From Clostridiales bacterium (GTDB lineage Bacteria; Bacillota; Clostridia; Saccharofermentanales; Saccharofermentanaceae), in NCBI GenBank assembly GCA_017513085.1, contig JAFWDK010000027.1:128001-192000 (forward strand): 64,000 nt of DNA, in the 5' to 3' direction. The notes beneath the pieces were generated by a model. It worked only from the letters and a program-made list of their open reading frames with translations. It searched no databases and was not told the DNA's origin. Positions 4,104 to 61,320 of this stretch are shown in pieces (position 1 is the first letter of the stretch; each line of letters starts with the position of its first letter). The translations under genes and the position numbers were made by a program.

Positions 4104-4159
4104 GCGGAATCAGCAAACCGAAAACAGTAGACCGCAACCGGTGATCTGATCTGTATAGA

Positions 4160-5329
4160 TCAGTATCTTCTGTTACGCACTTTTGAGACGATCATCACGA
4201 TGATAATGATGGCGCTGACTGCAACCAGCAATCCGCCAATGATCGTGCGCGAGGAAAACTCCGAGTCAATAAAGTCCAGGAAACCCGGTTCGGACCCGGG
4301 TGTAGGTGTCGGTGTCGCCGGGACAGGCGTAGGCGTAGGTGTCGGCGTCGGCGTAGCAGTAGGTCTCGGGCCGGGACGGATCGAAACCTCAGAACAGACT
4401 TGCTTTTCGAAACGCACTGTCTGCATGGAAGAAACTTCCTCGACAACACCATCAAAAGGCTCAGCAAGATAAGCATCGTAAAGCGAGAGTTCTTTTGAAG
4501 CAATAGCGGTCTTTCCTGCACGGATCGTAAGTTCGGAAGAGAGGATCGAAATCTCGCCCTCCGGTGCAAATACAGCAGTATGATCCATACCGGAAGAATG
4601 AACGGAAACCTTGCTCCCGTTTTCGATCTGGATATTCTTCGTTCCATAGATCACGCTTTCCGATGCGGAGAGATCCAATACCGAATCTGCTCCTGTGATG
4701 CGGATATTTCCATCCATGGCGACGAGCGCGCGGGATAAGGAGTCTACGGTGATTTTGGAATCCTCGATCATGAGGTCTCCGGAAGTATTGCCGATGGCGC
4801 CTCCGGTTGAGGCAACCTTATCATGGATCGTCAGAGCAGAAGACTGAACCGACAACGGACCATCGCTCATAACCAGATATTCCGTGTTTTCTGTCGCACC
4901 GGTCCCCTCGACCGTGACCGTCGTTTGGGACAGCGAAAGAGAACCGCCCTGCGCATAGAGCGCAGCGTGACATGCAGATGTGGTGAGGGAAAGCGATCCT
5001 TCTCCTTCTATCTTCAAAGAACCGGAAACATGGATCGCCGGAGATTCAAGGTTCGACGCAACCTTATTTTCTCCGGAAAGCTGGATAGTGGCTTCTTCCT
5101 GCGTGCCCAGGTCAATGTAAAGTCCGTCATACCCATCCAGGGAAAGAGTATGTGTTTCGGAATCGAATTTCCAGTTATCGCCTTTGCAGTCACGGCTTAC
5201 GGCAAAGACTTTGCCATCCACTATGATCGTCTTGTTATCTTTCGCCATGACCGGCATGCTGTGAAGCATCAAGATGCACGCAACTATCAACATTCCGATA
5301 AGATGATGTTTTTTTCTGTTTATACCCAT
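4160..5329 (-). CDS. Secreted membrane-anchored protein, probable beta-helix carbohydrate-binding domain (Cthe_2159-like) with Pro/Thr linker and C-terminal TM
   Basis: Signal peptide, repetitive beta-strand pattern (GSLKIEGEGSLSL), PTPTPT linker, hydrophobic helix and basic tail. Confidence 0.6.
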   Translation of the reverse strand: MGINRKKHHLIGMLIVACILMLHSMPVMAKDNKTIIVDGKVFAVSRDCKGDNWKFDSETHTLSLDGYDGLYIDLGTQEEATIQLSGENKVASNLESPAIHVSGSLKIEGEGSLSLTTSACHAALYAQGGSLSLSQTTVTVEGTGATENTEYLVMSDGPLSVQSSALTIHDKVASTGGAIGNTSGDLMIEDSKITVDSLSRALVAMDGNIRITGADSVLDLSASESVIYGTKNIQIENGSKVSVHSSGMDHTAVFAPEGEISILSSELTIRAGKTAIASKELSLYDAYLAEPFDGVVEEVSSMQTVRFEKQVCSEVSIRPGPRPTATPTPTPTPTPVPATPTPTPGSEPGFLDFIDSEFSSRTIIGGLLVAVSAIIIIVMIVSKVRNRRY

Positions 5330-31621: not shown

Positions 31622-32317
31622 ATGGCTACCGCTAATGTAAATCCAACCAGAATGGAACTCACACGCTTGAAGAAGCGTCTGATTACTGCGCGCCGCGGAC
31701 ACAAACTCCTGAAGGACAAGCGTGATGAACTCATGCGTCAGTTCCTCGAAGCCGTCCGCGAAAACAAGCGTGTGCGCCGTGAAGTGGAAGCCAAACTGGA
31801 AGTGGCCAACCAGCACATGTCGGTTGCCCGCTCTCTGATGTCGAACCAGGCGATCTCTGTCGCCATGATGTACCACAAGCAGAGCATGTCTCTGGAAGTG
31901 TCCGAGAAGAACGTCATGAGCGTCAAGGTGCCGGTATTTAAGGCACAGTATAAGACCGCAGATGAAGGCGACATTTATTCGTATGGTTATTCTTTCACGC
32001 CGATCGATCTCGATGACGCGATCCTGGCTTTGTCGGATATTATGCCGGACCTCATTGCACTTGCTGAGATCGAGAAAAAGTGTCAGCTCATGGCTTCTGA
32101 AATCGAGAAAACACGTCGTCGTGTTAATGCTCTTGAGCACGTCATGATCCCGGATTACGAGGAAAAGATCCGCTACATCACCATGAAGCTCGATGAGAGC
32201 GAACGTTCCGCTACGACCCGTCTCATGAAGGTCAAGGACATGATGATCGAAAAGACCATCCGCGAGCGTCAGGCGCGTGAGCAGGAACTGGATGTCAAGC
32301 TGGCTGAGGAAGCCTGA
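31622..32317 (+). CDS. ntpD: V/A-type ATPase subunit D
   Basis: NPTRMEL, GHKLLKDKRD, KTRRRVNALE. Confidence 0.97.
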   Translation: MATANVNPTRMELTRLKKRLITARRGHKLLKDKRDELMRQFLEAVRENKRVRREVEAKLEVANQHMSVARSLMSNQAISVAMMYHKQSMSLEVSEKNVMSVKVPVFKAQYKTADEGDIYSYGYSFTPIDLDDAILALSDIMPDLIALAEIEKKCQLMASEIEKTRRRVNALEHVMIPDYEEKIRYITMKLDESERSATTRLMKVKDMMIEKTIRERQAREQELDVKLAEEA

Positions 32318-32751: not shown

Positions 32752-33960
32752 TCATTTCTTCCCGAGAAGCGGTGCAGAGACGCGTGGGAGGATGCCTTGC
32801 ATGTGAGCGAGGATGACGCCGTAATTAGTGATCGGCACGCCGGCGCTCTGGCAGATGCGGATGCGGTGCATCATCTCTCTGGGATTGAGCATGCAGCCGC
32901 CGCAGTGGATCACGAGATCAAACTCGGAAAGATTGTCCGGGAAAGAATCGCCGGAAGACCACTCAAAGTGGAAGTTTTTACCGGTTGTCCTGGTAATCAT
33001 CTTCGGAAGCTTCACGGTTCCGATATCGTTGCACTGACGATGGTGTGTGCACCCCTCCGAAATCAGGATATGAGCACCATCTTCAAGAGAATCCAGTGTT
33101 TTGGCAGAAAGGATCGCTTCACCAAGATCTCCTTTGTATCTAGCAAACAGCATGGAGAATGAGGTCAACGGAATCTCCTGCGGGACAATCTCATTAACTT
33201 CCTTGAAGGCCTGACTGTCTGTAACGACCAACTTCGGCGGTTTGCCAAGAGACTCCAGAACCTTAGAGAGCTCAGGGACCTGCGTAACTACCGCGATGGC
33301 GCTGCTGTCCAGGACATCTCGAAGTGTCTGCTGCTGCGGAAGGATCAGGCGTCCTTTTGGCGCGGATTCATCGATCGGCGTAACCAGAACTACAATATCG
33401 CCTTCGGATATCAGATCCGCGATGATCTTTCGGCCGTTTGTCGGATCGACCACCAGATGGCCGACCATTTCTTTCAGATCGTTAATGTTGATCTTGTCGG
33501 AAGCGGACACCCAGATACTATCTTGCGCCACCTCTTTCGTGCGGCCTTTTCCTATACGCTGCTGGACAAGGTCGAGTTTGTTATATACCGTGATGTACGG
33601 AAGATTTCTGTCTTTGAACATTTTCATCAGCATGCGGTCGCCATCAGTAAGACCGATCGTGCCGTCTACCACGTGGATCGCGATGTCGACTTTCGCCATG
33701 ACCTCTTTGCACTTGGTCACACGAAGGGCACCCAATTCACCCTCATCGTCGATACCGGGCGTGTCCACGATCATGACCGGGCCCAGAGGGAGGAGTTCCA
33801 TTGCCTTATAGACCGGATCTGTCGTTGTCCCTTTTACATCTGAAACGATCGCGATCTCCTGGTTGGTAAAAGCATTTACAACACTGGATTTTCCGGCATT
33901 ACGCATACCAAAGAATCCGATATAGATACGCTCTCCGCGTGGTGTTGATGAAAGGCTCAT
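32752..33960 (-). CDS. hydF: [FeFe]-hydrogenase H-cluster maturation GTPase HydF
   Basis: GMRNAGKSS, GTTTDPV, DTPG, NKLD, APKGRLILPQ, CTHH, HCGGC. Confidence 0.96.
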   Translation of the reverse strand: MSLSSTPRGERIYIGFFGMRNAGKSSVVNAFTNQEIAIVSDVKGTTTDPVYKAMELLPLGPVMIVDTPGIDDEGELGALRVTKCKEVMAKVDIAIHVVDGTIGLTDGDRMLMKMFKDRNLPYITVYNKLDLVQQRIGKGRTKEVAQDSIWVSASDKININDLKEMVGHLVVDPTNGRKIIADLISEGDIVVLVTPIDESAPKGRLILPQQQTLRDVLDSSAIAVVTQVPELSKVLESLGKPPKLVVTDSQAFKEVNEIVPQEIPLTSFSMLFARYKGDLGEAILSAKTLDSLEDGAHILISEGCTHHRQCNDIGTVKLPKMITRTTGKNFHFEWSSGDSFPDNLSEFDLVIHCGGCMLNPREMMHRIRICQSAGVPITNYGVILAHMQGILPRVSAPLLGKK

Positions 33961-34046
33961 AAGCGTATTTCCCCTCTTCTCAAGATATGTTTATTGTACT
34001 AGAAGAGTAACATCTTTCTCAAGTAGTGAAAGTCTCCTCTTATTGC

Positions 34047-35333
34047 TTAAGAAGCGGAATACTGAAGTTTATACAATTCTAACAAAGCGTACAAATACAT
34101 ATCTTCTTGTGTTTCAATTAAGCATTCTGAATCACCCAAACTGATGTCCGTGATATCCTCTTCATAGGGTTTCGATAAATCAATAACTCTATCGTACAGA
34201 TATTTGCATGTAGTAATTATCATCATTGAAACCCAAAATGTAACATCATACTCCATCGTATCTACATGAGAACAATAAGCCCATACCTCATCAAGCGGTG
34301 GATTGATTTCTCCCTTAGGAGTCTCCATTTCTAAATAATCACGAATAGTGGTATCGAGACTGCATTTTTCATCATTTGAAACGATTATTGAAACCTGCTT
34401 ATTCAGTCTAGTAAAAACCAGCGGATCAAATTCAACTCGGTAGTTCGAATATTCATTAAATCCCCTGTGAAAATACTTTGCTCCATCATAGAGGAAGCTG
34501 ACAGAACATAACTGTTTTTCATGTGTTTTTTCGTCAAACATCTTTATACTTTTGTTGATCCAATCAGAATCTGAGAAAGACATGACAGAGAATTTCTTTA
34601 ACTCAAGTATTTTCTTCCTTATAGTTTTATTGCATTTACAAAAAGCCGTATACATTGGTCGAACAAAGTTATGCAACGGATCTATAAATGAAGCTATCTG
34701 GCACAATGGAAGAAGCCCTATTTCTTTCTCATATGTAATACAAAATTCCTGCGCTTCTCTATATATAGAGTCTTTATTCTTCGATGGCACGAGTCCTGCA
34801 TTTTTACGTGATTTGCCCATTCGTTTTTCTATTTGAGAAAAGAATTTCTCATTAAGCTCATGAACATTCTTTTCAGCGTTAGAATTATCATTAGATTTTA
34901 AAACATACAAAAATACTCCAGCCAAAAATACATCCTCAGCTACACTTTTTTCTCGAATATCTTTCTTAGTGATTGGGGTTATAACATCAACTTTACATTC
35001 GTCATTTGTTTCATCATCGTTCTCTATTAGCTTATATAAAGCCTCCATCAAAACTGGCATTTTGTTCTGATCAATTAACGGGATTACTTCTTCTGTAAAA
35101 TGAGATATCAACTTAGGATAATTATTCGAAGTATAACTTAAACCATCTTCAACAACATAGTCCGGGGGATTCTTCCTACCAGCAACTAAATTAGATATAA
35201 GGCTATCGTCAGTCTCATCAAATTGATTGGAGTGAAAATGCATAATCGTTCCAACCAGACGCTTTTGTGTACAAGATTTTGATTTGTAACGAACCAGAAT
35301 TGTCAAATATGTTCCCAAACACAATTTGCTCAT
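34047..35333 (-). CDS. Hypothetical protein (428 aa), possible N-terminal HTH-like region
   Basis: Long AT-rich ORF with purine-rich RBS; QKRLV...DSLISNLVAGRKNP resembles a cro/XRE recognition helix. Confidence 0.75.
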   Translation of the reverse strand: MSKLCLGTYLTILVRYKSKSCTQKRLVGTIMHFHSNQFDETDDSLISNLVAGRKNPPDYVVEDGLSYTSNNYPKLISHFTEEVIPLIDQNKMPVLMEALYKLIENDDETNDECKVDVITPITKKDIREKSVAEDVFLAGVFLYVLKSNDNSNAEKNVHELNEKFFSQIEKRMGKSRKNAGLVPSKNKDSIYREAQEFCITYEKEIGLLPLCQIASFIDPLHNFVRPMYTAFCKCNKTIRKKILELKKFSVMSFSDSDWINKSIKMFDEKTHEKQLCSVSFLYDGAKYFHRGFNEYSNYRVEFDPLVFTRLNKQVSIIVSNDEKCSLDTTIRDYLEMETPKGEINPPLDEVWAYCSHVDTMEYDVTFWVSMMIITTCKYLYDRVIDLSKPYEEDITDISLGDSECLIETQEDMYLYALLELYKLQYSAS

Positions 35334-35491
35334 ATCCTTTCCCCCTGTCTACCCTAGATTATACGGCTTTTCACGAAACAAGTCTCGGGAAAGTTTCAGT
35401 CATGTTTTTCAATTCAGACACAATTTAAAATGTTGGCAATAACACCAGGATCCTTGTGTTTATATTTCTTTTTTCAGGAGGATAAACACAC

Positions 35492-36214
35492 ATGAAAAGT
35501 GTTAATAATCGGCCGCCTCGAAAAGGCTGCAAAGACATTTGGAATGCATTTATGGTTAAAGATGCGTCATTCGATGTTGGTACAGATATGCCAATTTGTA
35601 TTTCAACTGACATTATACCTGTATCGCTCATTTCGTTCGAGGATGCAAAAACCATTTATAAAAAGGAGATGAAACTTAAGCATAATAATTTCTTTATCAA
35701 TACCTTCATACATTTCTACATCGATGATCAGAAATTTGATGGGAAACGCACAAGCATTTGGACGTATCCAAATCAGGCACTTAAGATCATACGCCATTTT
35801 GCCGGCATAATAACACCTGATTTTTCAACATATGCAGATTTCCCCAAACCCGTCAAATACTTTAACACTTATCGCATGCGAGCATTTGGATGCTGGATGA
35901 ACGTGTTAGAAATCCCTGCTATTAACAATGTTCGTTGGGGAACATATGAAACCTGGGAATATTGCTTTGCTGGTATTCCAAAAGGAAGCACTGTTGCAAT
36001 CGGTTCAGTGGCAAGCGGTATCAGAAAACTAAACAATCGCCCGCTTTTTGAAGAAGGGCTAAAGAAAATGGTATCCGTCATATCTCCAAAACGCATAATC
36101 GTCTATGGCTCTTCAAATTACCCCTGTCTTCAGAATCTTCGAAAAACCGGCATAGAGATAGTTTCCATTCCGAGCAAGACAAGTCTGGCGTATAAGGAGG
36201 TGTCTAATGAGTAA
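35492..36214 (+). CDS. DUF4417 domain protein
   Basis: HFYIDDQKF, ITPDFSTYADFP, NTYR, NVRWG, GIPKGSTVAI, PKRIIVYG. Confidence 0.88.
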   Translation: MKSVNNRPPRKGCKDIWNAFMVKDASFDVGTDMPICISTDIIPVSLISFEDAKTIYKKEMKLKHNNFFINTFIHFYIDDQKFDGKRTSIWTYPNQALKIIRHFAGIITPDFSTYADFPKPVKYFNTYRMRAFGCWMNVLEIPAINNVRWGTYETWEYCFAGIPKGSTVAIGSVASGIRKLNNRPLFEEGLKKMVSVISPKRIIVYGSSNYPCLQNLRKTGIEIVSIPSKTSLAYKEVSNE

Positions 36215-36782
36215 ATCTAACAGTGGGCTTTTCTCTGGTACGAACGGAGACAAACTGACACGTTATACTCGCACTGTAGGAAATCTCAGGCAAAAGATTC
36301 CGGAAAGTGATATTATAGCAAGTAGAGTAGCGGGCCTTGATCTTCATGAGCATCCTTTGAAATATAAGCAGTTATCTTCCAAAAAGATGAAACAGTTAAG
36401 CAAGAAAGTTGCTACACGCACGTTGACACAGCACGAGTATAAATCATATGATTCGAATATGCGATTATTGAAAAGACGTGAAAAAGGTGTGGATTCCTTT
36501 TGGAAGCAAGAGACACAACGAATCATTGCAGGCGCTCCCACCACAAGAAACTGGAGTCCGGAGCAAAGAAATGACATAATTCATAATCGTCGGCCGAAAG
36601 AGAATGGAAAAACTCTGCAAGGTCACCATACCTATAGTGTCGCTAAGTATCCGCACTTGGCAAATCGTGGAGAAGTAGTATTTCCTGCAACTTTTAATGA
36701 ACACTTATATGGATGGCACGGAGGTAATATCAAGAAGTCATTGCCGGGTCAACCAATAAACCCTAGTAAACTTCGTAGATAG
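36207..36782 (+). CDS. Small polymorphic-toxin-like nuclease with Tox-GHH (HNH/EndoVII fold) domain
   Basis: FWKQE...RNWSPEQR...LQGHHTYSVAKYPHLA...NEHLYGWHGG; AAGGAGG RBS; start overlaps the DUF4417 stop. Confidence 0.82.
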   Translation: MSKSNSGLFSGTNGDKLTRYTRTVGNLRQKIPESDIIASRVAGLDLHEHPLKYKQLSSKKMKQLSKKVATRTLTQHEYKSYDSNMRLLKRREKGVDSFWKQETQRIIAGAPTTRNWSPEQRNDIIHNRRPKENGKTLQGHHTYSVAKYPHLANRGEVVFPATFNEHLYGWHGGNIKKSLPGQPINPSKLRR

Positions 36783-36795
36783 TAGGAGGAAAAAA

Positions 36796-37155
36796 ATGCA
36801 AAACATAGATGTTATGGATAACATAGGAATTAAGATTACTCATTTTACTTCCCTCTCAAAAACCATCGGGATTTTAAGAAAGTATCGAAATGACTCTATG
36901 AGTACTATCAAATCTGATATCGAGTCAAGTGATTTTGTCTTTGCATGTGATTATACCGATGATGAAGGACTTGTAAAACTCATCAATTGTTATGATGAGC
37001 TTGTAGCATGTGGTTGTAATGTAGTCATATATGATCTTGGTCGTATTGGCTCTAGAGAATTACTTTGCAATCTGCATGAGTCTCACGAAATAACACATAT
37101 GGAAACATTAGCAGAGATAGATGCTGAGTTAAATGATGCTGAAAATGACGAATGA
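36796..37155 (+). CDS. Putative cognate immunity protein
   Basis: Small acidic protein 13 nt after the toxin stop, strong AGGAGG RBS. Confidence 0.6.
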   Translation: MQNIDVMDNIGIKITHFTSLSKTIGILRKYRNDSMSTIKSDIESSDFVFACDYTDDEGLVKLINCYDELVACGCNVVIYDLGRIGSRELLCNLHESHEITHMETLAEIDAELNDAENDE

Positions 37156-37181
37156 CAGCATATCGGGAAGATTACCTTGGC

Positions 37182-37220
37182 AAAGGGTGTATAGGCGTTA
37201 TAGATACCTATACACCCTTT
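37182..37220. terminator. Hairpin terminator closing the toxin operon
   Basis: AAAGGGTGTATAGG-11 nt-CCTATACACCCTTT perfect 14-bp inverted repeat. Confidence 0.7.
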
Positions 37221-37273
37221 CTTGAAAATGTGGTACATTAAATGTAGTTTTCGAGGGTTCCCAGGGGGTGGGT

Positions 37274-46201: not shown

Positions 46202-46328
46202 AGTTTACACCTTCAGAATCACTTGTCGGGGACTTATAAAAATCCACGATAATAATACCAGTATTCGGAAGAATTGGAAAGAGAGCCACAAGTGCGCTAT
46301 AATGTTGCTGAATATTTAGGGGCGGTAA

Positions 46329-48020
46329 ATGGGCATTTTCGAAGAAAAAACATATCAGGTCAAGTGTAGCGGTCTTTCCAACGAAGGACAGGGTGTCGCG
46401 CGTATTGAGAGCGACCGTGAAAAAGATAACGGACTAAAGGTATTTGTGGACGATCTCTTACCCGGAGAGGTCGCTAAGATCCGTATTACTTCGCGTGAGA
46501 AGAACCTGGCTCACGGAGAAAAGATCGAAACCGTATCCGAATCGCCCAACCGTGTTGTGCCTGTCTGCTCCGAGTTCACCAAGTGTGGTGGATGTCAGAT
46601 TCAGCATGCCGACTATGCCTGCCAGCTCAAAATGAAGGAAGACATGGTCCGCTCTTGCCTGCACCGTATCGGGCATATTTCCCTTTCCGACCTTCACTCG
46701 GTCAGCGAGCCCATCTTAGGCGCCCCGGACCAGTTCTTTTACCGCAATAACGTTCAGTATCCGATCGAATACAGTCATGCCAAGAAGAGCGTGAATATCG
46801 GTCTTTACGAGAAGAAGAGCCACAAGATCGTGGAACATGAGAAGTGTTACCTCGTTCATCCGTCAGCCGAAGTGATCCGTGGTGTGGCGCAGATCTATTT
46901 CAGCGACCACTCCCGTGCCAATATTGCTAAATATCTCCGGCAACTCATTGTTCGTGTGGGTTTTTTCAGCAAGGAAATGATGGTCGTTCTCGTCTGCACA
47001 CGTCCTATCAAGCTCGATGCGGAAGAATTCGTCCAGACTTGCGAGAGAGCCATGTCACAGGCACAGATCGGTATGCACATCTCCAGTATCTGGACACAGG
47101 AAACCAAGGACCGTGCCAAGAAGGGGGCTTCCGATTGTTGGACCAATGTCTGGGGGAAACCCTATATTCATGAATTCCTGGAACACCGGGTATTCCGCAT
47201 CTCGCCGGATGCTTTTTTCCAGGTCAACAGTAAACAGACGATCCATCTGTATTCCAAAGTTAAAGAATATCTCCGCTACGACGGAGCGCTTCCCCGTCTT
47301 CTTGTGGATCTTTACTGTGGCACCGGCAGTATCGGCATCTTCTGCTCCAGTGTCTGCCATCACCTGGTCGGTATCGAGTCAGTCGAGTCTGCCGTAATCG
47401 ATGCGCGCGCCAATGCTACAGCTAATTATCTTGAAAACGCCGAGTTTTTCTGTGGTAAAGCAGAGGACTACGATTTCGGCGCAATGATGCCGGACGCGGT
47501 CGTCATCGATCCTCCTCGCAAAGGCTGCGACGAAAAACTGCTCCGCGAACTACTGCATCTGGCCCCTACCCGGATCGTTTACGTTTCCTGTAACCCTTCC
47601 ACATTAGCGCGGGACCTTCACCGTCTCTTCCAGATCCAGGAAGAGGGCGACACACGCTACGGCATCAGCCGTATCTGCCCGGTGGATATGTTCCCGAATA
47701 CGTCTCATGTCGAGACTGTTGTCTTGCTTTCCAAGGAAAACATATCGACAAAACATGTTCGGGTTGAGTTTAATCTTGAAGAGATGGATATGTCAGGATT
47801 CAAGGTCGGTGCTACTTATGAAGAGATAATCGCATGGGTTCAGGAGAAATACGGTTTCCATGTTACTCATCTTAATATTGCTCAGGTCAAGCGCAAGTGC
47901 GGGATCGTTGAAAGAGAGAACTACAATCTTCCAAAATCACCGGACTCAAGACAACCGAATACTCCTAAGGAAAAAGAGGATGCGATCAAGGATGCGTTCA
48001 AGCATTTTAATATGATCTGA
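46329..48020 (+). CDS. rlmD: 23S rRNA m5U1939 methyltransferase RlmD with ~100-aa element-derived C-terminus
   Basis: TRAM domain, CSEFTKCGGC, AFFQVN, DLYCGTG, DPPRKG, YVSCNP, DMFPNTSHVE; extension follows ETVVLLSK. Confidence 0.95.
   Translation: MGIFEEKTYQVKCSGLSNEGQGVARIESDREKDNGLKVFVDDLLPGEVAKIRITSREKNLAHGEKIETVSESPNRVVPVCSEFTKCGGCQIQHADYACQLKMKEDMVRSCLHRIGHISLSDLHSVSEPILGAPDQFFYRNNVQYPIEYSHAKKSVNIGLYEKKSHKIVEHEKCYLVHPSAEVIRGVAQIYFSDHSRANIAKYLRQLIVRVGFFSKEMMVVLVCTRPIKLDAEEFVQTCERAMSQAQIGMHISSIWTQETKDRAKKGASDCWTNVWGKPYIHEFLEHRVFRISPDAFFQVNSKQTIHLYSKVKEYLRYDGALPRLLVDLYCGTGSIGIFCSSVCHHLVGIESVESAVIDARANATANYLENAEFFCGKAEDYDFGAMMPDAVVIDPPRKGCDEKLLRELLHLAPTRIVYVSCNPSTLARDLHRLFQIQEEGDTRYGISRICPVDMFPNTSHVETVVLLSKENISTKHVRVEFNLEEMDMSGFKVGATYEEIIAWVQEKYGFHVTHLNIAQVKRKCGIVERENYNLPKSPDSRQPNTPKEKEDAIKDAFKHFNMI
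47712..47735 (+). repeat. Left attachment junction of the IME
   Basis: GAG ACT GTT GTC TTG CTT TCC AAG (ETVVLLSK). Confidence 0.85.
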
Positions 48021-48159
48021 TTGAAGATACTTTAGTTAATCACGCCGTGGGTAGTTGGAGCAATCCAATGTCCTGCGGCGGTTTTATTATGCCTGAAGGT
48101 ATTGTGTCCGATGGTATAATTGAAGCAGATGGATTCAATAGGCAACGGGAGGTGTGGCA

Positions 48160-48735
48160 ATGAACATAAGAAAAATAACATCTCTGGTACTTGTCTTTGT
48201 ATTTGTGTTCTCATTTACCGCCTGCAAGAAAACTGATGTCCCCGAGCTGGATAGAATCTTGAATTATTCAGTTGAACAGTTTGATGATCTGGCAAGCAGC
48301 GTTGATGAGAAGGATTTGATCAAAGCATGGGGTGAACCGCAAGCATTAGGCAGCCGCAGATTCTGGAGAATCAGTGTTGAGGGCGAGACGACAAAGTTTG
48401 TTGTGGCATGGGTTGAGAACGGAAACGTAACATCTATTCACGTTTCCAAGCCTCTGTTTATCAATGTTGCAGCTATAGAAAACGGCGTAGCTTACTGCGT
48501 ATTTGGTTGGAATTACTATTCTACTGATGCAGCTAATCTTGCATTTATGCCAACACAGGACTGTTTTGGCAATGAGATTGCATGTGAGGTTGGTGATCAA
48601 TTCATATTCCAATTTGACGGTATGATCATGGAGTCTTATCCGGCACAGATCAACGCTCCATACTCGGCTGTTCGGATGGGACACCTGTCTGACGAAGAAA
48701 TCTCCGAGATGGCAAGTAACATTGTATTACCGTAG
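48160..48735 (+). CDS. Hypothetical lipoprotein
   Basis: FTAC lipobox, GGAGG RBS, upstream TGGTATAAT extended -10. Confidence 0.75.
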   Translation: MNIRKITSLVLVFVFVFSFTACKKTDVPELDRILNYSVEQFDDLASSVDEKDLIKAWGEPQALGSRRFWRISVEGETTKFVVAWVENGNVTSIHVSKPLFINVAAIENGVAYCVFGWNYYSTDAANLAFMPTQDCFGNEIACEVGDQFIFQFDGMIMESYPAQINAPYSAVRMGHLSDEEISEMASNIVLP

Positions 48736-48764
48736 CGATTATCTTTGATCGTTATTTCGACGGA

Positions 48765-49682
48765 TCAATACACAAGCAGTCCGTTTTCCATTTTGAGTAA
48801 TCGATCATCTACAAAGACAATTGGTACTATCTCGGAGTCGTTATTTTCTGCACAGTTGAAATCCACAATATATTTTAAAGCCTGCTCTTCGCCGGGAAAT
48901 ATAATCAATTGATATGGAAAGTTATAATCCAGCTTTTCTAATAACATAACACCTTCGGATTTTGTATGAATCAGGACAGCCGCGTGACCGCAATGCAAAA
49001 TGTACTGATCACTATCATCATAAATATCAGATCCGTTAAACCATATAGAAATCAAGCTGATGTTATTGTTTCCCTGGAAACTAATGCCGGTCTGTCTCCA
49101 ATACTCATTTATTTGCTCCGCCTGTTCAGACACACTGATGTTTTCGGACGATTCTATACCGTTGAATAATAATGTGAATTGTCTGATATCTGAATCAGAC
49201 TGAAAAACGGATGAATCGTTGATTTCAACAAGCATCATCGGCTCTGTCACTTGGGAAGCTGTGTCGTATGAAATAAGCGAACCCATAGCTTCAAATGCAG
49301 TTAATCGGCAGTTTCTTCTGCCGGTTAGATTCCCATATTTACTCTTCCATTTTCTTTCTAGCTTTGTTGAATCATATGCGGATGCAGCGTTTTCAGTAAA
49401 AACCGCAAATCCGCTTTGTACTGGTAAAATATCTCCTGTAGCAGCATTGTACTGAATGATGTTTTCGAGCAAGGCATCTATATAAGGCTTTTGAACGCCT
49501 GCTTCTTCCAAAGCTGTCCTTAGAACATCCTGCGATTCCAGATCAACAAGGTTACTGTATACTGCATCATACGGAGAACCCTGTGACTCTGTCTTGCTGT
49601 TTTGCGTTCCACAGCCTGTAACAAGTAGTATTAAACATAATGTTGTTACGAAGGTTAATACGCTATTTAATGATTTATTCAC
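48765..49682 (-). CDS. DUF4300-like lipoprotein
   Basis: VTGC lipobox, YSNLVD, NCRLTAF, GHAAVL, LLEKL...PYQ. Confidence 0.7.
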   Translation of the reverse strand: MNKSLNSVLTFVTTLCLILLVTGCGTQNSKTESQGSPYDAVYSNLVDLESQDVLRTALEEAGVQKPYIDALLENIIQYNAATGDILPVQSGFAVFTENAASAYDSTKLERKWKSKYGNLTGRRNCRLTAFEAMGSLISYDTASQVTEPMMLVEINDSSVFQSDSDIRQFTLLFNGIESSENISVSEQAEQINEYWRQTGISFQGNNNISLISIWFNGSDIYDDSDQYILHCGHAAVLIHTKSEGVMLLEKLDYNFPYQLIIFPGEEQALKYIVDFNCAENNDSEIVPIVFVDDRLLKMENGLLVY

Positions 49683-56735: not shown

Positions 56736-58174
56736 TGGCGCTCTATCATTTTTCCGTAACACAGGTTAAGCGAAGTGCAGGACAAAGCGCGATTGCCTGC
56801 GCATCGTATCGTGCAGGGGAACGTCTTTACAGTCAATATTACGATGAGGTCAGTGATTACTCCAAGAAAGGGGGCGTGATCTATAGTGAGATCATGCTTC
56901 CAGAGAATGCACCTAAGGAATATGCGGATCGGGAAACACTCTGGAACGCTGTCGAAGATGTGGAGAAACACCCCAAGGCACAGCTGGCATATAGCTTTGA
57001 TATTGCTCTTCAGAACGAATTATCCCAAGAAGAAAATATCGATCTGGCTAGAAGATTTGTGAAGGAATATCTTGTGGCAGATGGTATGATCGCTGATCTT
57101 GCCGTTCACAATCCTGAACGTGACGGGAACCCCAATCCTCATATTCATATCCTTACAACGATGCGGCCTCTTAATCCTGACGGAAGCTGGGGATCTAAGC
57201 AGCATCGTGAATATCTTTTTGATGATCAGGGGAATCCCGTAAAGGATGAGAAAGGTAATCAGAAATATAAAGCGGTACCGAATACCGATTGGGGAACACC
57301 CGAGAAACTTCAGCAATGGCGCGAGGATTGGGCAAACCTCGTTAATTCCAAATTCGAAGAGAAAGGTCTTCCCTGTCGAATAGACCACAGATCTTATGAG
57401 AATCAGGGCATTCATGAACTTCCGACAGTTCACGAAGGTCCGACTGTCCGTGCGATGGAACTGAAAGGCATTCCAACGGAAAAGGGCGAGTATAACCGAT
57501 GGATACGAAAGACAAATGCGATGATCAGGGGTCTTCTCTCTAAGATTAAAGAAATGGTCGCCGCTATCAAAGACATGCGCGAAGAAATCAAGAGAATCGA
57601 GGAAGAACCTTCTCTCGCAGATCTGTTGATGGCAGGTCGAACCCCAGCAAAATCATCGTTACAGGATCTGAAATTCCTCTCGGCGGATATTCTCTTCCTT
57701 CAGAAACATTCTATCTATCGAATCGATGATCTTGAGAACTATCTTGAAAAGATGGAGTCTCTTAAGCAGTCGCAGAAAGATCGTCTGGATAAATGCAATG
57801 CCCGGAGAAAAGAAGTGAAAGAACTTATCTCCTTGCTTGATATCTATCACGAGACCAAGCCGATCTACGAAGAAGGCATGAAGAAATTCTTCGGCAAAGA
57901 GAAGTATATGCAAGAAAACGAAGGCAGGATCAAACAATATCAGATGGCAAAGAGAAAACTCGCCAAAGCATCAAAGTCTCGCGGCGGAAAACTCACAAAG
58001 AAAATGCTCGAAAAGGAACTTGCAGCATTGGATTCGGAGTATTCCGCTATCCGCGATGAATTCGTCAAGAGTCGAGACGAAGTCCAAACGGTAAGCAGGA
58101 TCCAGTATTCGATACAGCGCGGGCTCGAAGCAAAACATCCTCATAAAACCAGAGCTACAGATCTATCACTTTAA
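56735..58174 (+). CDS. mobA: MobA/MobL family (MOBQ) relaxase
   Basis: MALYHF, SAIACASYRAG, LWNAVE, NPHIHIL, IDHRSY, PTVHEG. Confidence 0.93.
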   Translation: MALYHFSVTQVKRSAGQSAIACASYRAGERLYSQYYDEVSDYSKKGGVIYSEIMLPENAPKEYADRETLWNAVEDVEKHPKAQLAYSFDIALQNELSQEENIDLARRFVKEYLVADGMIADLAVHNPERDGNPNPHIHILTTMRPLNPDGSWGSKQHREYLFDDQGNPVKDEKGNQKYKAVPNTDWGTPEKLQQWREDWANLVNSKFEEKGLPCRIDHRSYENQGIHELPTVHEGPTVRAMELKGIPTEKGEYNRWIRKTNAMIRGLLSKIKEMVAAIKDMREEIKRIEEEPSLADLLMAGRTPAKSSLQDLKFLSADILFLQKHSIYRIDDLENYLEKMESLKQSQKDRLDKCNARRKEVKELISLLDIYHETKPIYEEGMKKFFGKEKYMQENEGRIKQYQMAKRKLAKASKSRGGKLTKKMLEKELAALDSEYSAIRDEFVKSRDEVQTVSRIQYSIQRGLEAKHPHKTRATDLSL

Positions 58175-58196
58175 AAATACGGAGGTATATAAATAT

Positions 58197-58451
58197 ATGA
58201 AAAAGTATTATAACAATCCCAAATATGATGCGGCATTTGATCGTTGCGTCAATATATTGGCAACCCTTATGGTGAAGTACGGCCCGAGAGTGCTTCTGAA
58301 GCAGGCCGTTGAAAGAATACTTGGTAAGGGACGCCTGAGTATCTACAATCCTGAAAGTCCTAAGATCAAGAAAGAACGTCTTATCGCGTATCAGAAAGAG
58401 TACGGCAAGATCAGTTCTTCCGCTAAGGATGTAAAAGATAAAGCCGCATAA
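58197..58451 (+). CDS. Small hypothetical protein of the IME
   Basis: 84 aa, GGAGG RBS, basic, between relaxase and regulator. Confidence 0.6.
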   Translation: MKKYYNNPKYDAAFDRCVNILATLMVKYGPRVLLKQAVERILGKGRLSIYNPESPKIKKERLIAYQKEYGKISSSAKDVKDKAA

Positions 58452-58529
58452 GACACAAATCTACAATTTGTGCGTTGCACATGATATGATTATTAGTTAT
58501 TATTAGTGCAACGCATAGATAAGGAGATT

Positions 58530-58742
58530 ATGATCATGGACTGCAAGACAAAGATAAAAGAACTTCGTGAGATGACAGGAATGAACAGAACGGAGTTTTG
58601 TGAGTACTTCCAGATTCCATACGGAACAGTTACCGATTGGGAACGTGATTACCGTCATGCACCGGAATATGTTCTCCGCCTTCTGGAATACTACATCCGT
58701 ATGGAGAATCTCATAAAAGACAATAAGGACGAAACGAAGTAA
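58530..58742 (+). CDS. XRE-family HTH protein
   Basis: IKELREMTGMNRTEFCEYFQIPYGTVTDWE. Confidence 0.85.
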   Translation: MIMDCKTKIKELREMTGMNRTEFCEYFQIPYGTVTDWERDYRHAPEYVLRLLEYYIRMENLIKDNKDETK

Positions 58743-58781
58743 CCGCATCGAATTACATACGGTTAGAAAGGAAAAGATAAT

Positions 58782-59642
58782 ATGGCTAACAAACCCATTA
58801 AAGATACTATTCATGCTAAAGGATTTGATATCGGTATATATACCACCGATTACGAGAATGAATTTATATCATTGACGGATATCGCAAGATATAAGAGCGA
58901 TATGCCTCATGATGTGGTCAAAAACTGGATGAGGAGCCGAGAAACAATAGAGTTTCTTGGAATCTGGGAGAGTCTGCACAATCCGAATTTTAAACAGGTC
59001 GAATTCGACCTGTTTAGAAAGGAAGCAGGATTGAACGCATTCACAATGTCACCTACAAAGTGGATCGAAAGTACAAATGCTATCGGCATCGTTACAAAAG
59101 CCGGACGTTATGGCGGAACTTATGCGCATTCCGATATTGCACTCGAGTTTGCATCTTGGGTATCTGCCGAATTCAAACTTTATATCATGAAGGACTATCA
59201 GAGACTAAGGCGTGATGAAAGTAGCAGGCTGTCTCTTGCATGGAACCTTCACCGCGAGATTGCCAAGCTTAATTACCGTGTTCATACCGATGCGATCAAG
59301 GATAATCTGATTCCACCGGAACTGACATCAACGCAGATCTCATATAAGTATGCAAGTGAAGCAGATATGCTTAATGTCGCACTTTTCGGTAAGACTGCTA
59401 AAGAATGGCGGGATGAGAATCCTGATAAAAACGGCAATATGAGAGATTATGCTACTCTGAATCAACTCCTTGTTCTGGCTAACATGGAAAGCTATAACGC
59501 AATTCTTATTGAACAAGGAAAGCGGATGTCAGAACGTCTTGTTCTCATTAGAAAGCAAGCTATTAAACAACTTCAGACACTTGATCTGGTAAGTCTGGAC
59601 AATCTGCCCAAGCTCCCGGGAGGAGATAATAATGAAGAATAA
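58782..59642 (+). CDS. KilA-N domain DNA-binding protein
   Basis: FISLTDIARYK, TIEFLGIWE, GRYGGTYAHSDIALEFASW. Confidence 0.9.
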   Translation: MANKPIKDTIHAKGFDIGIYTTDYENEFISLTDIARYKSDMPHDVVKNWMRSRETIEFLGIWESLHNPNFKQVEFDLFRKEAGLNAFTMSPTKWIESTNAIGIVTKAGRYGGTYAHSDIALEFASWVSAEFKLYIMKDYQRLRRDESSRLSLAWNLHREIAKLNYRVHTDAIKDNLIPPELTSTQISYKYASEADMLNVALFGKTAKEWRDENPDKNGNMRDYATLNQLLVLANMESYNAILIEQGKRMSERLVLIRKQAIKQLQTLDLVSLDNLPKLPGGDNNEE

Positions 59643-61320
59643 TAAAAAGAAATGTTATATCTATACCCGTGTCTCCACGATGATGCAAGTCGATGGATTC
59701 AGCCTTGATGCCCAGAAAGATAAACTCCGCAAGTATGCTGATTATCAAGATTGGGAGGTCGCTGCTGAGTATTCCGACGAAGGATGCTCCGGTAAGAATA
59801 TCCAAGGCAGACCTGAGTTCTCGCGCATGATGTCAGATATTGAGGATTGCAAAGATGGAGTCAGTTATGTTCTCGTCTTTAAGCTTTCACGTTTCGGTCG
59901 TAATGCCGCAGATGTTCTGAATTCCTTGCAGATCATGCAGGATTTCGGGGTGAATCTCATCTGTGTGGAAGATGGTATCGACAGTTCCAAGGATGCAGGT
60001 AAGCTCATGATATCCGTCCTTTCCGCTGTTGCTGAGATTGAGAGGGAGAATATCCGTACTCAGACCATGGCAGGACGTGAGCAGAAAGCTCGCGAAGGCA
60101 AATGGAACGGAGGCTTTGCTCCTTATGGTTATAAGCTTGAAAATGGAGAACTCCTTATTGCCGATGATGAAGTTGAGATCATCAATATCATATTTGATCG
60201 CTATATACATACGAAGGACGGGATTAACGGCGTAGCAAGCTACCTGAATTCGCATGGCTATACAAAGAAGTTACGTCAGAATAATACTATTCCGGGGTTT
60301 TCCTCTTCATTTGTTAAGGCAGTAATAGATAATCCGATATATATGGGGAAGATAGCATACGGGCGTCGAAAGACAGAAAAGAAGATCGGTACCCGTAATG
60401 AAATGCACGTTGTGGAGCAATCTGTATTCCCTGTTTATGAAGGTGCACATGAGGCGATAATCTCTGAAGTGGACTGGAATCTTGCGCAGGAGAAGAGAAA
60501 ACTTAATGCTTACAAACGCCAGAAGGTTCATGATATCGATCACGCACATATACTTTCGGGAATCCTTAAGTGTCCTTGTTGTGGGAAGAGTCTATACGGA
60601 AATATCGCCAAGGCACACAGCAAGGATAACAAGACGCGATTCTACTACTATTGCAAGAACACCTTAGGGGCGACCGGACATCGTTGCACATTTAGACATA
60701 ATATAGAACAGACAGAGATCAACCAGATGGTTGCATCTATAATATCTGCAATGGTTACAAGACCGGACTTCAAGGAAGCGATCACCGAAAAGATAGGATC
60801 CGCTGTTGATACCAAGGATATGGAAAAACAGAAGGAAGCCTTGCAGGATAAACTCAGGCAGACTCTGGGAACCAAATCCAAGCTTGAGCATCAGATGGAC
60901 AGTCTAGATGTCCTTGATCCGCACTATGACAGGAAGATGCTGGATCTTCAAAGAAGATATGATCAGCAGTACGACATCCTTGCCGATATAGAGAATCAAA
61001 TCGAGGACCTGAAAGAACAGATTCGTCATATTCAACATGAAAATATAACCGGTAATAATATCTATCAGTTGCTTCTAACTTTCGATGAATTGTATGATGA
61101 ATTCAACGAAGCAGAGAAAAAGGATTTCATGAGATCATTCGTAGAGCGTATCGACATATATCCCGAAAAGCCTGAAAACGGCTGCTGGATAAAGAATATC
61201 GTGTTTAACTTCCCCATTCCGATGAATGGGGAAGACATCACGGAATTGCCCTTGGAATCTCAAAAGACCGCTGAGACGGTAGTTCTTCTGTCCAAACTAT
61301 CCAGCACAGCCAGGCTGTAA
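59632..61320 (+). CDS. Large serine recombinase (integrase) ending in the host RlmD tail
   Basis: YTRVST catalytic Ser, SRFGRN, APYGY, HEAII, CPCCG zinc ribbon, coiled coil; last 15 aa ETVVLLSKLSSTARL. Confidence 0.95.
   Translation: MKNNKKKCYIYTRVSTMMQVDGFSLDAQKDKLRKYADYQDWEVAAEYSDEGCSGKNIQGRPEFSRMMSDIEDCKDGVSYVLVFKLSRFGRNAADVLNSLQIMQDFGVNLICVEDGIDSSKDAGKLMISVLSAVAEIERENIRTQTMAGREQKAREGKWNGGFAPYGYKLENGELLIADDEVEIINIIFDRYIHTKDGINGVASYLNSHGYTKKLRQNNTIPGFSSSFVKAVIDNPIYMGKIAYGRRKTEKKIGTRNEMHVVEQSVFPVYEGAHEAIISEVDWNLAQEKRKLNAYKRQKVHDIDHAHILSGILKCPCCGKSLYGNIAKAHSKDNKTRFYYYCKNTLGATGHRCTFRHNIEQTEINQMVASIISAMVTRPDFKEAITEKIGSAVDTKDMEKQKEALQDKLRQTLGTKSKLEHQMDSLDVLDPHYDRKMLDLQRRYDQQYDILADIENQIEDLKEQIRHIQHENITGNNIYQLLLTFDELYDEFNEAEKKDFMRSFVERIDIYPEKPENGCWIKNIVFNFPIPMNGEDITELPLESQKTAETVVLLSKLSSTARL
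61273..61296 (+). repeat. Right attachment junction of the IME (displaced native rlmD 3' end)
   Basis: GAG ACG GTA GTT CTT CTG TCC AAA (ETVVLLSK). Confidence 0.85.

Follow-up and report, generated by a model that had tools for sequence, protein, structure and literature searches.

In type VI secretion systems (T6SS), adaptors are encoded by a conserved gene upstream of interchangeable effector and immunity genes, and they recognize the conserved N-terminal part of the effector. In bacteriophage T4, an N-terminal capsid-targeting peptide, which is cleaved by the prohead protease, marks the internal proteins and Alt for inclusion in the virion, from which they are injected together with the DNA. 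According to excerpts of the literature, the T6SS adaptor or chaperone genes (DUF4123, DUF1795 and DUF2169) mark variable effector–immunity pairs (PMC7714669), packaging of Alt into T4 particles is mentioned (PMC5512222), and the MuF phage-capsid toxins are predicted to be packed into the head (PMC3482391, PMC5576092), as are ADP-ribosyltransferases (ARTs) and further effectors whose genes neighbor those of the terminase (PMC9503650, PMC5512222). Here, a 64,000-nucleotide stretch from a Clostridiales bacterium (assembly GCA_017513085.1, contig JAFWDK010000027.1, positions 128,001 to 192,000, forward strand; hereafter, the window) is shown to harbor a cassette that contains a DUF4417 gene, a toxin gene of the Tox-GHH family and the gene of a small acidic protein. 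It is moderately likely that this cassette was acquired horizontally and that its core represents an undescribed class of polymorphic toxin, in which DUF4417 recognizes a short leader borne by the Tox-GHH DNase and the acidic protein confers immunity.

The DUF4417 gene (35492..36214, + strand) encodes a protein of 240 aa that belongs to PF14386 (E 2.5e-40, 138.4 bits against a cut-off of 28.9) and matches PHROGs 8680 (8e-43) and 940. The start of the toxin gene (36207..36782, + strand) overlaps the DUF4417 stop by 8 nt, and its product, a short-form polymorphic toxin of 191 aa, is composed of the leader MSKSNSGLFSGTNG (codons 1–14, 36207..36248, + strand; family motif M-S-K-x-x-S-G-x-F-x-G-T-x-G), a variable spacer, a conserved pre-toxin linker (approximately residues 35–85) and the Tox-GHH nuclease domain, for which the best stretch against PF15636 spans residues 87–156 (36465..36674, + strand; E 4.5e-11, 43 bits against a cut-off of 25). 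The putative cognate immunity gene (36796..37155, + strand) encodes a protein of 119 aa with an isoelectric point (pI) of 4.4. A preliminary description of the locus, made from the letters alone, had listed these three open reading frames (ORFs), which are borne out by the ORF list, the Pfam matches and the pI values; the overlap of DUF4417 with the toxin start, the GHH signature with further His residues and the Gly/Ser-rich leader that it noted are likewise present, and the leader is conserved across the toxin family.

The association of DUF4417 with the leader is evident from either side of the pair. Among 80 metagenome loci picked by DUF4417 profile similarity alone, 75 carry an abutting ORF that starts with MSKxxSGxFxGTxG, and the bodies behind this leader are GHH domains in 39 cases and other domains in 36, so that the shared Gly-rich N-terminal motif with varying tips and immunity genes, which the preliminary description had suggested looking for downstream of DUF4417, is indeed found. 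In the reciprocal sample, genome loci picked by toxin similarity with one genome per species, DUF4417 lies directly upstream in 25 of the 26 loci that contain a short-form GHH toxin or its remnant; in the 26th (L006), the contig ends 113 nt upstream. No DUF4417 gene was found beside the long-form GHH loci of this sample. A leader ORF is present by 101 of 108 close DUF4417 genes, and the other seven comprise three contig ends, one degraded locus, two variant leaders and one unexplained case. The DUF4417 and effector ORFs overlap by 8 nt in 63 of the 101 loci and by 4 nt in 23, and DUF4417 and toxin ORFs are predicted to be translationally coupled.

Behind the same leader, at least 10 unrelated clusters of bodies occur with a complete member. 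According to Pfam, these bodies include an LHH nuclease (7e-27), which is followed by a SUKH_5 immunity gene (3.7e-28), a YwqJ-like deaminase (~1e-5), a JAB-like domain (Prok-JAB, 1.6e-4) and, as a weak match, a PBECR1-like domain (1.2e-4), and an unassigned body (L088) is followed by a CdiI_4-like immunity gene (5e-5). Neither the toxin nor the scanned effectors gave a Pfam match to MuF or Phage_min_cap2. The loci display what defines polymorphic toxins, namely a constant N-terminal part with diverse tips and a downstream immunity gene that varies with the tip. DUF4417 and the leader are a conserved pair, and the body and the immunity gene behind them are freely swapped.

In an unbiased draw, DUF4417 occurs in 10 of 401 genomes of the phylum, and a protein with a Gly/Ser-rich leader is encoded behind all eight stand-alone copies above the cut-off (L057–L062, L065 and L066). 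The source genome itself contains three DUF4417 systems, which differ in tip or specificity. The second (contig C14, approximately 46216–49400; L065/L177) reproduces the four-gene layout of the window, which includes a divergent gene described below, at 58%, 53%, 44% and 27.5% identity. The third system (contig C11, approximately 57300–60200; L066) is composed of XRE and Peptidase_M78 genes, DUF4417, an EndoU nuclease led by MGTSKSGRYLNTKG and an acidic ORF, and its EndoU tip is recognized at 2.2e-13.

The 191-aa toxin has a pI of 10.4 and nine His residues. Its GHH signature corresponds to G139, H140 and H141, and H140, H141, H150, H166 and H171 are invariant among 27 aligned toxin sequences. 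On these sequence features, it is classified as a nuclease toxin of the HNH/EndoVII type and predicted to be a DNase. No transmembrane helix or signal peptide is apparent in the toxin (highest Kyte-Doolittle mean over 19 residues, 0.17), none of the known trafficking domains (T2, T5, T6, T7, PVC, PrsW or MuF) was found, and Pfam shows Tox-GHH alone in the 191-aa protein, in agreement with the earlier statement that the toxin comes without a carrier, a signal peptide and secretion genes.

A search of 5.8 billion proteins returned 117 homologues of the toxin, nearly all of which are 179–212 aa long and cover 96–100% of the query, and their N-termini have MSKPxSGHFxGTxG in common. These homologues exclude the truncated orphan tip that the preliminary description had named as an alternative. 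A broader version of this alternative regards the 191-aa ORF as a tip that has been displaced or orphaned and that persists as a silent cassette, in an accidental neighborhood, for recombination into a complete toxin; such tip–immunity cassettes are described as common in polymorphic toxin loci in excerpts of PMC3482391, and degraded copies do exist (L043, L044, L046 and L047). It is nevertheless hardly credible, because the family is conserved at full length, with its own start codon, leader and DUF4417 coupling in more than 60 loci, because the catalytic His residues are invariant, and because the ORF list and Pfam reveal no complete GHH carrier gene within the window.

Scanning one genome per species with the toxin yielded 47 loci of two kinds. 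In the short-form kind (Lachnospiraceae, other Clostridia and Eggerthellales), the match begins at residue 1, whereas in the long-form kind (Bacillus, Streptococcus, Enterococcus and others) it begins at approximately residue 35 inside proteins of 435–1126 aa that bear LXG, PT-TG or PT-HINT domains. The LXG toxins of the type VII secretion system (T7SS) thus have the same pre-toxin linker, the same GHH tip (approximately 50–60% identity over residues 35–184) and a homologous immunity gene, but they differ in possessing a 200-residue LXG carrier, with or without PT-TG/PT-HINT (Bacillus, Streptococcus and Enterococcus), and neither the DUF4417 gene nor the MSK leader was found at those loci. Scans of viral contigs gave three loci with the toxin profile and four with the DUF4417 profile, and the annotated phage collection described below proved a far richer source.

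The 119-aa acidic protein matches no family in Pfam, PHROGs, NCBIfam or PADLOC. Across the 50 loci selected with the toxin, phmmer detected 47 homologous ORFs, which follow short-form GHH toxins as well as long-form ones of the LXG type. Because the immunity gene is homologous in short- and long-form loci, the GHH tip and the immunity gene are considered, by homology, to be a true toxin–immunity module that T7SS carriers use too. The occurrence of the same tip on LXG carriers had been overlooked in the preliminary description, as had the connection to phages and the fourth gene of the cassette. In L043, L044, L046, L047 and L019 (7450–7725), the GHH toxin ORFs are degraded or fragmentary and the immunity gene is intact; such orphans are a usual feature of loci for polymorphic toxins.

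The leader is conserved as a peptide. Among 21 short-form toxins, M1, S2, K3, S6, F9, T12 and G14 are invariant, and the motif fits 99 of 101 DUF4417-adjacent effectors. Counted over 84 distinct leaders, M1 is found in 84, S2 in 80, K3 in 84, S6 in 81, F9 in 81, G11 in 75, T12 in 82 and G14 in 82, where positions 1–6 were partly fixed by the search rule and positions 9–14 were free. The synonymous codons vary, and all four Gly or Thr codons occur at G11, T12 and G14; selection therefore acts on the peptide and not on an RNA element. Conservation of the leader as an RNA element or through the gene overlap was considered and is ruled out by the length of the overlap (4–8 nt) together with the free codon use.

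The leader is also specific to the neighborhood of DUF4417. In a six-frame translation of the 3.06-Mb genome (6.1 million residues), the strict motif has two occurrences, each directly after a DUF4417 gene, and a relaxed motif adds one more, after the third DUF4417 gene. When a profile of 25 leaders was compared with 5.8 billion proteins in the 'longer' mode, in which the best 8000 candidates by shared words were scored, 69 proteins were retrieved, all of 73–191 aa: three GHH toxins, four YwqJ deaminases, one LHH nuclease and 61 proteins without a Pfam family. Long carriers are absent from these 69 matches among the best 8000 candidates scored.

DUF4417 itself resembles an enzyme. The motifs HFYIDDQ, PDFST and NVRWG, the conservation of which had been claimed in the preliminary description (as HFY.DD, PDFS and VRWG), are kept across 22 DUF4417 relatives. 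In 18 distant members, D79, W149, F159 and G161 are invariant, and D110 and S112 of the PDFS motif are nearly so. The AlphaFold2 (AF2) model (pLDDT 83.7, pTM 0.82) consists of seven beta/alpha units that form a TIM-type barrel. The active sites of TIM barrels usually sit after the strands, and the conserved Asp, Ser and Trp residues of the DUF4417 model come after beta-strands; because of this arrangement, DUF4417 looks like an enzyme in the model. The arrangement of the genes resembles that of the T6SS adaptors in that a conserved accessory gene lies directly upstream of swappable effector and immunity genes, but the proteins are unrelated, T6SS is not involved, and DUF4417 is predicted to be an enzyme-like TIM barrel and not to have a chaperone fold.

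A direct contact between DUF4417 and the leader was modeled with the DUF4417 alignment and leader residues 1–40. The predicted complex has an ipSAE of 0.60 (0.60, 0.56 and 0.60 in the individual runs), the best of three controls is 0.00, at least 73% of the contacts are consistent between runs, and the partner pLDDT is at least 61. In the calibration, 116 of 157 solved complexes pass the ipSAE mark, as do 2 of 215 mismatched pairs, and the pairs that reach it at 0.60 or below comprise 18 of the 157 solved complexes and both passing mismatches. The earlier proposal that DUF4417 is an enzyme or chaperone that recognizes the leader is therefore strengthened with respect to the enzyme, by the TIM-barrel model with its conserved residues, and weakly supported with respect to the complex with the leader.

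The fold comparison that the preliminary description had called for gives a lead and not a finding. Foldseek returned no match of the DUF4417 model in the PDB at E ≤ 0.001. In an exhaustive VIA search (48,161 chains), the top four matches all belong to the TGT family (QTRT2, Z 9.4; archaeosine TGT, 8.9; bacterial TGT, 8.2; the DNA preQ0 insertase DpdA, 8.1), generic TIM barrels come next (Z ≤ 7.8), and a best Z of 7–8 is usual even for models without a clear match. The superpositions on the TGT family have a root-mean-square deviation of 3.5–4.0 Å over 180–184 residues. Models of phage 'queuine tRNA-ribosyltransferase' recur among the weak matches of DUF4417 in the viral library BFVD, and the ESM Atlas yielded only clusters of DUF4417 itself.

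At the level of sequence, a relationship of DUF4417 to TGT was tried and rejected: hhalign of the DUF4417 alignment (A2) against eight bacterial TGTs (PF01702) gave a probability of 0.06%. The Pfam scan of DUF4417 shows no match to the TGT family, and a profile search of the PDB sequences gave chance-level matches (best E 0.034). The alignment A8 contains no Zn-binding Cys/His cluster but a single nearly invariant Cys (C158); in DpdA, the structural Zn site is CxCx2Cx22H (PMC10164549, excerpt). In common with the DpdA/DpdB and TGT systems, DUF4417 has a predicted TIM barrel, for which these enzymes are the best structural neighbors, and a ParB-like NTPase partner, which is fused to it in phages (PMC10164549, excerpt), but it lacks their profile similarity, the Zn subdomain and the large insertions and has 240 aa compared with approximately 400; unlike at DpdA systems, genes of the preQ0 pathway were not seen in the islet. 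The likeness to TGT and DpdA is thus a weak one, at the level of the fold of a predicted model.

This likeness underlies a rival reading, in which DUF4417 is a DNA- or RNA-acting enzyme (a DpdA/TGT-like base-exchange enzyme, a glycosylase or a nuclease) that has nothing to do with the leader, the genes stay adjacent because they are mobilized together, and the toxin and immunity genes are an addiction module that stabilizes the islet and its defense cargo. The four best structural matches and the recurrent phage queuine tRNA-ribosyltransferase models speak for it, as does the islet, which moves as one unit without an integrase. In addition, phage DUF4417 frequently occurs as a fusion with a ParB N-terminal NTPase fold (bioRxiv 10.1101/2025.10.10.680097, excerpt; also seen here), DpdA requires the ParB-like ATPase DpdB (PMC10164549, excerpt), and the ParB_N-DUF4417 fusions would mirror this DpdB–DpdA partnership. 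However, addiction leaves unexplained why a 14-residue motif is constant on at least 10 unrelated bodies and occurs only beside DUF4417, and also the weakly predicted contact of the leader with DUF4417; moreover, hhalign shows no relationship to TGT, and the conserved Zn-binding cluster is not visible in alignment A8. We consider this reading improbable.

DUF4417 is encoded in 491 of 50,697 phage records searched by tblastn, including those of 384 Mycobacterium, 57 Streptococcus and 28 Gordonia phages. Seven phages with a stand-alone DUF4417 gene were sampled (Baehexic, XianYue, AnnaL29, JoeDirt, Epsocamisio, Dorea DO134P1 and Javan88), and in all seven the next gene begins with MGGRG, MGKRG or MGRGR. 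These leader-bearing genes sit just before HNH and terminase genes or adjoin the portal gene, as exemplified by genes 1–2 of the cluster A mycobacteriophages. Of the four viral loci from IMG/VR, two (L052 and L054) have DUF4417 with the gene of the large terminase subunit on one side and portal or Phage_min_cap2 genes on the other. Several of the MGGRG-led genes have been labeled 'VIP2-like ADP-ribosyltransferase toxin' by their depositors, Baehexic gp3 matches PF15644 (Gln_amidase, a papain-fold glutamine deamidase toxin) at 1.1e-13, and a metagenomic phage example matches an ART PHROG at 2e-4. In phages, the modules for DNA packaging and the head contain the same pair, with a leader of the MGGRG type and cargo of the ART or deamidase type, and the leader of L059 (MGGGYSNKFTGTRG) is intermediate between the MGGRG and MSK forms.

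Some phage loci show further peculiarities. In L175 (Gordonia phage Epsocamisio gene 2), L176 (Streptococcus phage Javan88_0033) and L173 (Mycobacterium phage AnnaL29 gp2), the annotated start is downstream of an in-frame MGGRG or MGKRG, and the in-frame starts overlap or abut the DUF4417 gene; the leader is probably missing from the gene models as deposited. In the viral contig L051, a DUF4417 fragment (783–1157) and a full DUF4417 gene (3917–4696) are approximately 2.8 kb apart, each is followed by an ORF with a Gly-rich leader, and a Fic-domain fragment lies in between, so that the contig may be a tandem array of cassettes.

The comparison with the MuF toxins (Zhang et al. 2012, PMC3482391; Jamet et al. 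2017, PMC5576092; both in excerpt) is instructive in this respect. Both have variable C-terminal toxins with small downstream immunity ORFs, the phage relatives of the DUF4417-leader pair are encoded in the terminase/portal/head module, and the cargo overlaps (Tox-PL1/Gln_amidase, ART and PBECR/EndoU-like nucleases). Unlike the MuF toxins, the DUF4417 cassettes have no fused MuF; their constant part consists of approximately 14 residues and a separate conserved gene, and many of them, including that of the window, are outside a prophage or head module. With the T4 internal proteins and Alt, they would have in common a short N-terminal peptide as a mark of cargo, a role that is only proposed here; the T4 signal differs in that it is cleaved by a protease, has another sequence and needs no partner like DUF4417.

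Taken together in a model, DUF4417 would be a cytoplasmic, predicted TIM-barrel enzyme that recognizes the leader by binding it and possibly by modifying it enzymatically, and the immunity protein would neutralize the DNase in the producer and its kin. DUF4417 and the leader may thereby replace the large carrier domains (LXG, RHS or MuF) of other polymorphic toxins. More speculatively, the effector could exit the cell as the cargo of phages or phage-like particles, in the manner proposed for MuF-fused toxins; the islet of the window carries no phage genes, and export from it would use the particles of a resident or infecting phage.

A more specific form of this model supposes that DUF4417 is a TGT/DpdA-like enzyme of glycosyl transfer with the leader as its substrate, which it would covalently couple to DNA by the N-terminus of the effector or modify in another way at packaging. 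The candidate nucleophiles would be the Ser or Gly amine freed by removal of Met, or the invariant K3, S6 or T12, and the effector would accompany the genome into the capsid and through injection. This is a long shot. If true, it would constitute a ninth trafficking mode of polymorphic toxins, common to the cluster A mycobacteriophages (genes 1–2) and gut Firmicutes, in which stand-alone islets arm the particles of resident or infecting phages, and chemical modification of the leader by DUF4417 or its tethering to DNA would be categorically new.

The GHH tip, the immunity gene and the logic of polymorphic toxins are known. As far as the literature was searched, three elements are new: a 14-residue leader without a carrier, the DUF4417 protein that obligatorily accompanies it, and the connection to phage genes (cluster A genes 1–2). 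The pairing with the leader is not described in the literature naming DUF4417 or PF14386, and the searched literature on head-packaged effectors names neither DUF4417 nor the leader, most subscription journals and some supplements being outside the search. DUF4417, a family that includes gene 1 of many cluster A mycobacteriophages, hereby gains its first functional context, and the leader is a short tag that marks small toxins or injected effectors left unannotated by domain searches. A helper protein and a 14-residue tag make up a compact two-part system. Should this tag prove to route cargo into virions, it would account for the packaging of phage effectors that lack a carrier and could be used to load proteins into phage particles.

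The divergent gene on the other side of DUF4417 (34047..35333, − strand), the fourth gene of the islet, encodes a 428-aa protein. Residues 1–167 match profile positions 1–166 of 490 of HamA1 in PADLOC (E 6.5e-19). The protein was considered as a true Hachiman HamA and this was ruled out, because only the N-terminal third matches, Pfam DUF1837 is unmatched and the model is all-alpha; no HamB helicase was found in the islet or among the scanned neighbors of related loci. It belongs to no Pfam family, its AF2 model (pLDDT 86.2) is all alpha with two domains, and no structural neighbors were found (best E 2.1 with Foldseek, best Z 3.9 with VIA, nothing usable in the ESM Atlas). The family is rare, occurring in 4 of 398 genomes of the class, and three of its five places adjoin DUF4417.

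Among 76 evaluable loci, the divergent neighbor of DUF4417 is a member of this 428-aa (HamA1-N-like) family in 45, ThsA (with ThsB-TIR) in 12, a helix-turn-helix protein (XRE-HTH) in 7, an M78 peptidase in 1 and another gene in 11. In L005, L015, L022, L038, L041 and L042, a Thoeris-like pair (Macro-domain ThsA and ThsB-TIR) replaces the 428-aa gene in this position. Genes of type I and HaeIII restriction-modification (R-M), RloB and WYL proteins are found near DUF4417 loci. The DUF4417 operon thus seems to travel with exchangeable defense cargo, and the 428-aa gene may be either a fourth component or a separate defense gene.

These surroundings are the basis of the main rival to leader-dependent export, in which the cassette is a member of a defense island and acts by abortive infection: the toxin and immunity proteins would be the effector pair of a toxin–antitoxin system, and DUF4417 would sense the phage, with phage DNA packaging or phage DNA modification as candidate triggers, and release the nuclease. 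The divergent neighbors are defense genes, with R-M, RloB and WYL genes nearby, and distant cassettes lie behind XRE and Peptidase_M78 regulators, which are common in inducible mobile-element modules. The swapping of effectors is typical of defense systems and also counts in its favor, and phage DUF4417 is part of the packaging module, so that a copy in the host could imitate or intercept a step of packaging. However, the SUKH_5 and CdiI_4-like immunities and a tip shared with secreted LXG/T7SS toxins are the signature of inter-bacterial toxins, the three genes match no PADLOC model, the pair is carried by phages themselves, which would be odd for a host sensor, and three systems with different tips or specificities in one genome resemble polymorphic toxin loci. 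We therefore regard abortive infection as unlikely, although it deserves more weight than the addiction module.

Several observations weigh against the proposal that DUF4417 and its leader form an export system. The context of a defense island fits an anti-phage role equally well. The contact of DUF4417 with the leader is only weakly suggested by the predicted complex, and the fold-level likeness to TGT and DpdA names no enzymatic activity of DUF4417. In phages with ParB-DUF4417 fusions (L055 and L056), no gene with an N-terminal leader lies downstream; because of these fusions, DUF4417 must also have a leader-independent role, which is probably directed at DNA. The export route is purely inferred, because no phage structural genes, secretion genes or signal peptide are present in or beside the islet. 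Finally, the RNA evidence on the islet consists of two short contigs from the four runs examined, for which carry-over of DNA is possible.

A pneumococcal locus of the fused type deserves separate mention. In L171 (3955–4701), gene 26 of Streptococcus phage phiARI0378 follows a ParB-DUF4417 fusion and contains GGGRG approximately 65 residues in, approximately 10 residues past an alternative Met, after which comes a JAB-like HNHPNG...S..D motif. This internal GGGRG implies that the leader is not always at the extreme N-terminus.

The genes of the window lie on an inserted AT-rich islet of approximately 3.1 kb (34040..37167, bounds good to approximately 30 nt), with a GC content of 0.32–0.42 over 34000–37250 compared with approximately 0.50 in both flanks. 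Among the congeners sampled, the closest is G413, with flanks of 88% identity and an empty site; there, the matches to hydF and the ABC-ATPase gene are 33 nt apart, compared with approximately 3.17 kb in the window, and in other congeners this gap is approximately 100–800 nt. Junction alignments place the insert at about 34040–37167, which corresponds to exactly four genes. The islet is an insertion that is absent from congener G413. No integrase, long terminal inverted repeats or clear target-site duplication was found for it; a candidate imperfect 11-nt direct repeat at its ends, GAAAGTCTCCT (34029–34039) and GAAGATTACCT (37168–37178), matches in 7 of 11 positions and is not convincing.

The divergent intergenic region (35334..35491) presumably contains the promoters of both transcription units. 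A promoter-like site at 35439–35466 (+ strand) has 9 of 12 matches, which is weak and no better than in shuffled sequences, and one 231-nt contig from an RNA library spans 35358–35588, also weakly.

A perfect hairpin with a 14-bp stem and an 11-nt loop (37182..37220) begins 27 nt past the stop codon of the immunity gene, and its arms (37182–37195 and 37207–37220) are 100% complementary. The consensus scan called no intrinsic terminator, because the loop has 11 nt and the stem is not followed by a T-run. The hairpin sequence aligns weakly and partly with the empty site of the congener; therefore, it may be part of the flank and not of the islet. Of the preliminary view of a three-gene operon on an AT-rich islet closed by a hairpin, the three genes, the AT-richness and the exact 14-bp hairpin hold, whereas the closure by the hairpin is doubtful on these grounds and the fourth gene has to be added.

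The islet was found in animal-gut metagenome runs of 13 studies. It is flanked by hydF and ABC transporter genes. On the left, the ORF at 32752–33960 (− strand) encodes, according to Pfam, a 402-aa HydF [FeFe]-hydrogenase maturase, and further out a 231-aa ORF (31622–32317, + strand) resembles, by eye from its sequence, subunit D of a V-type ATPase; both genes look like ordinary housekeeping genes.

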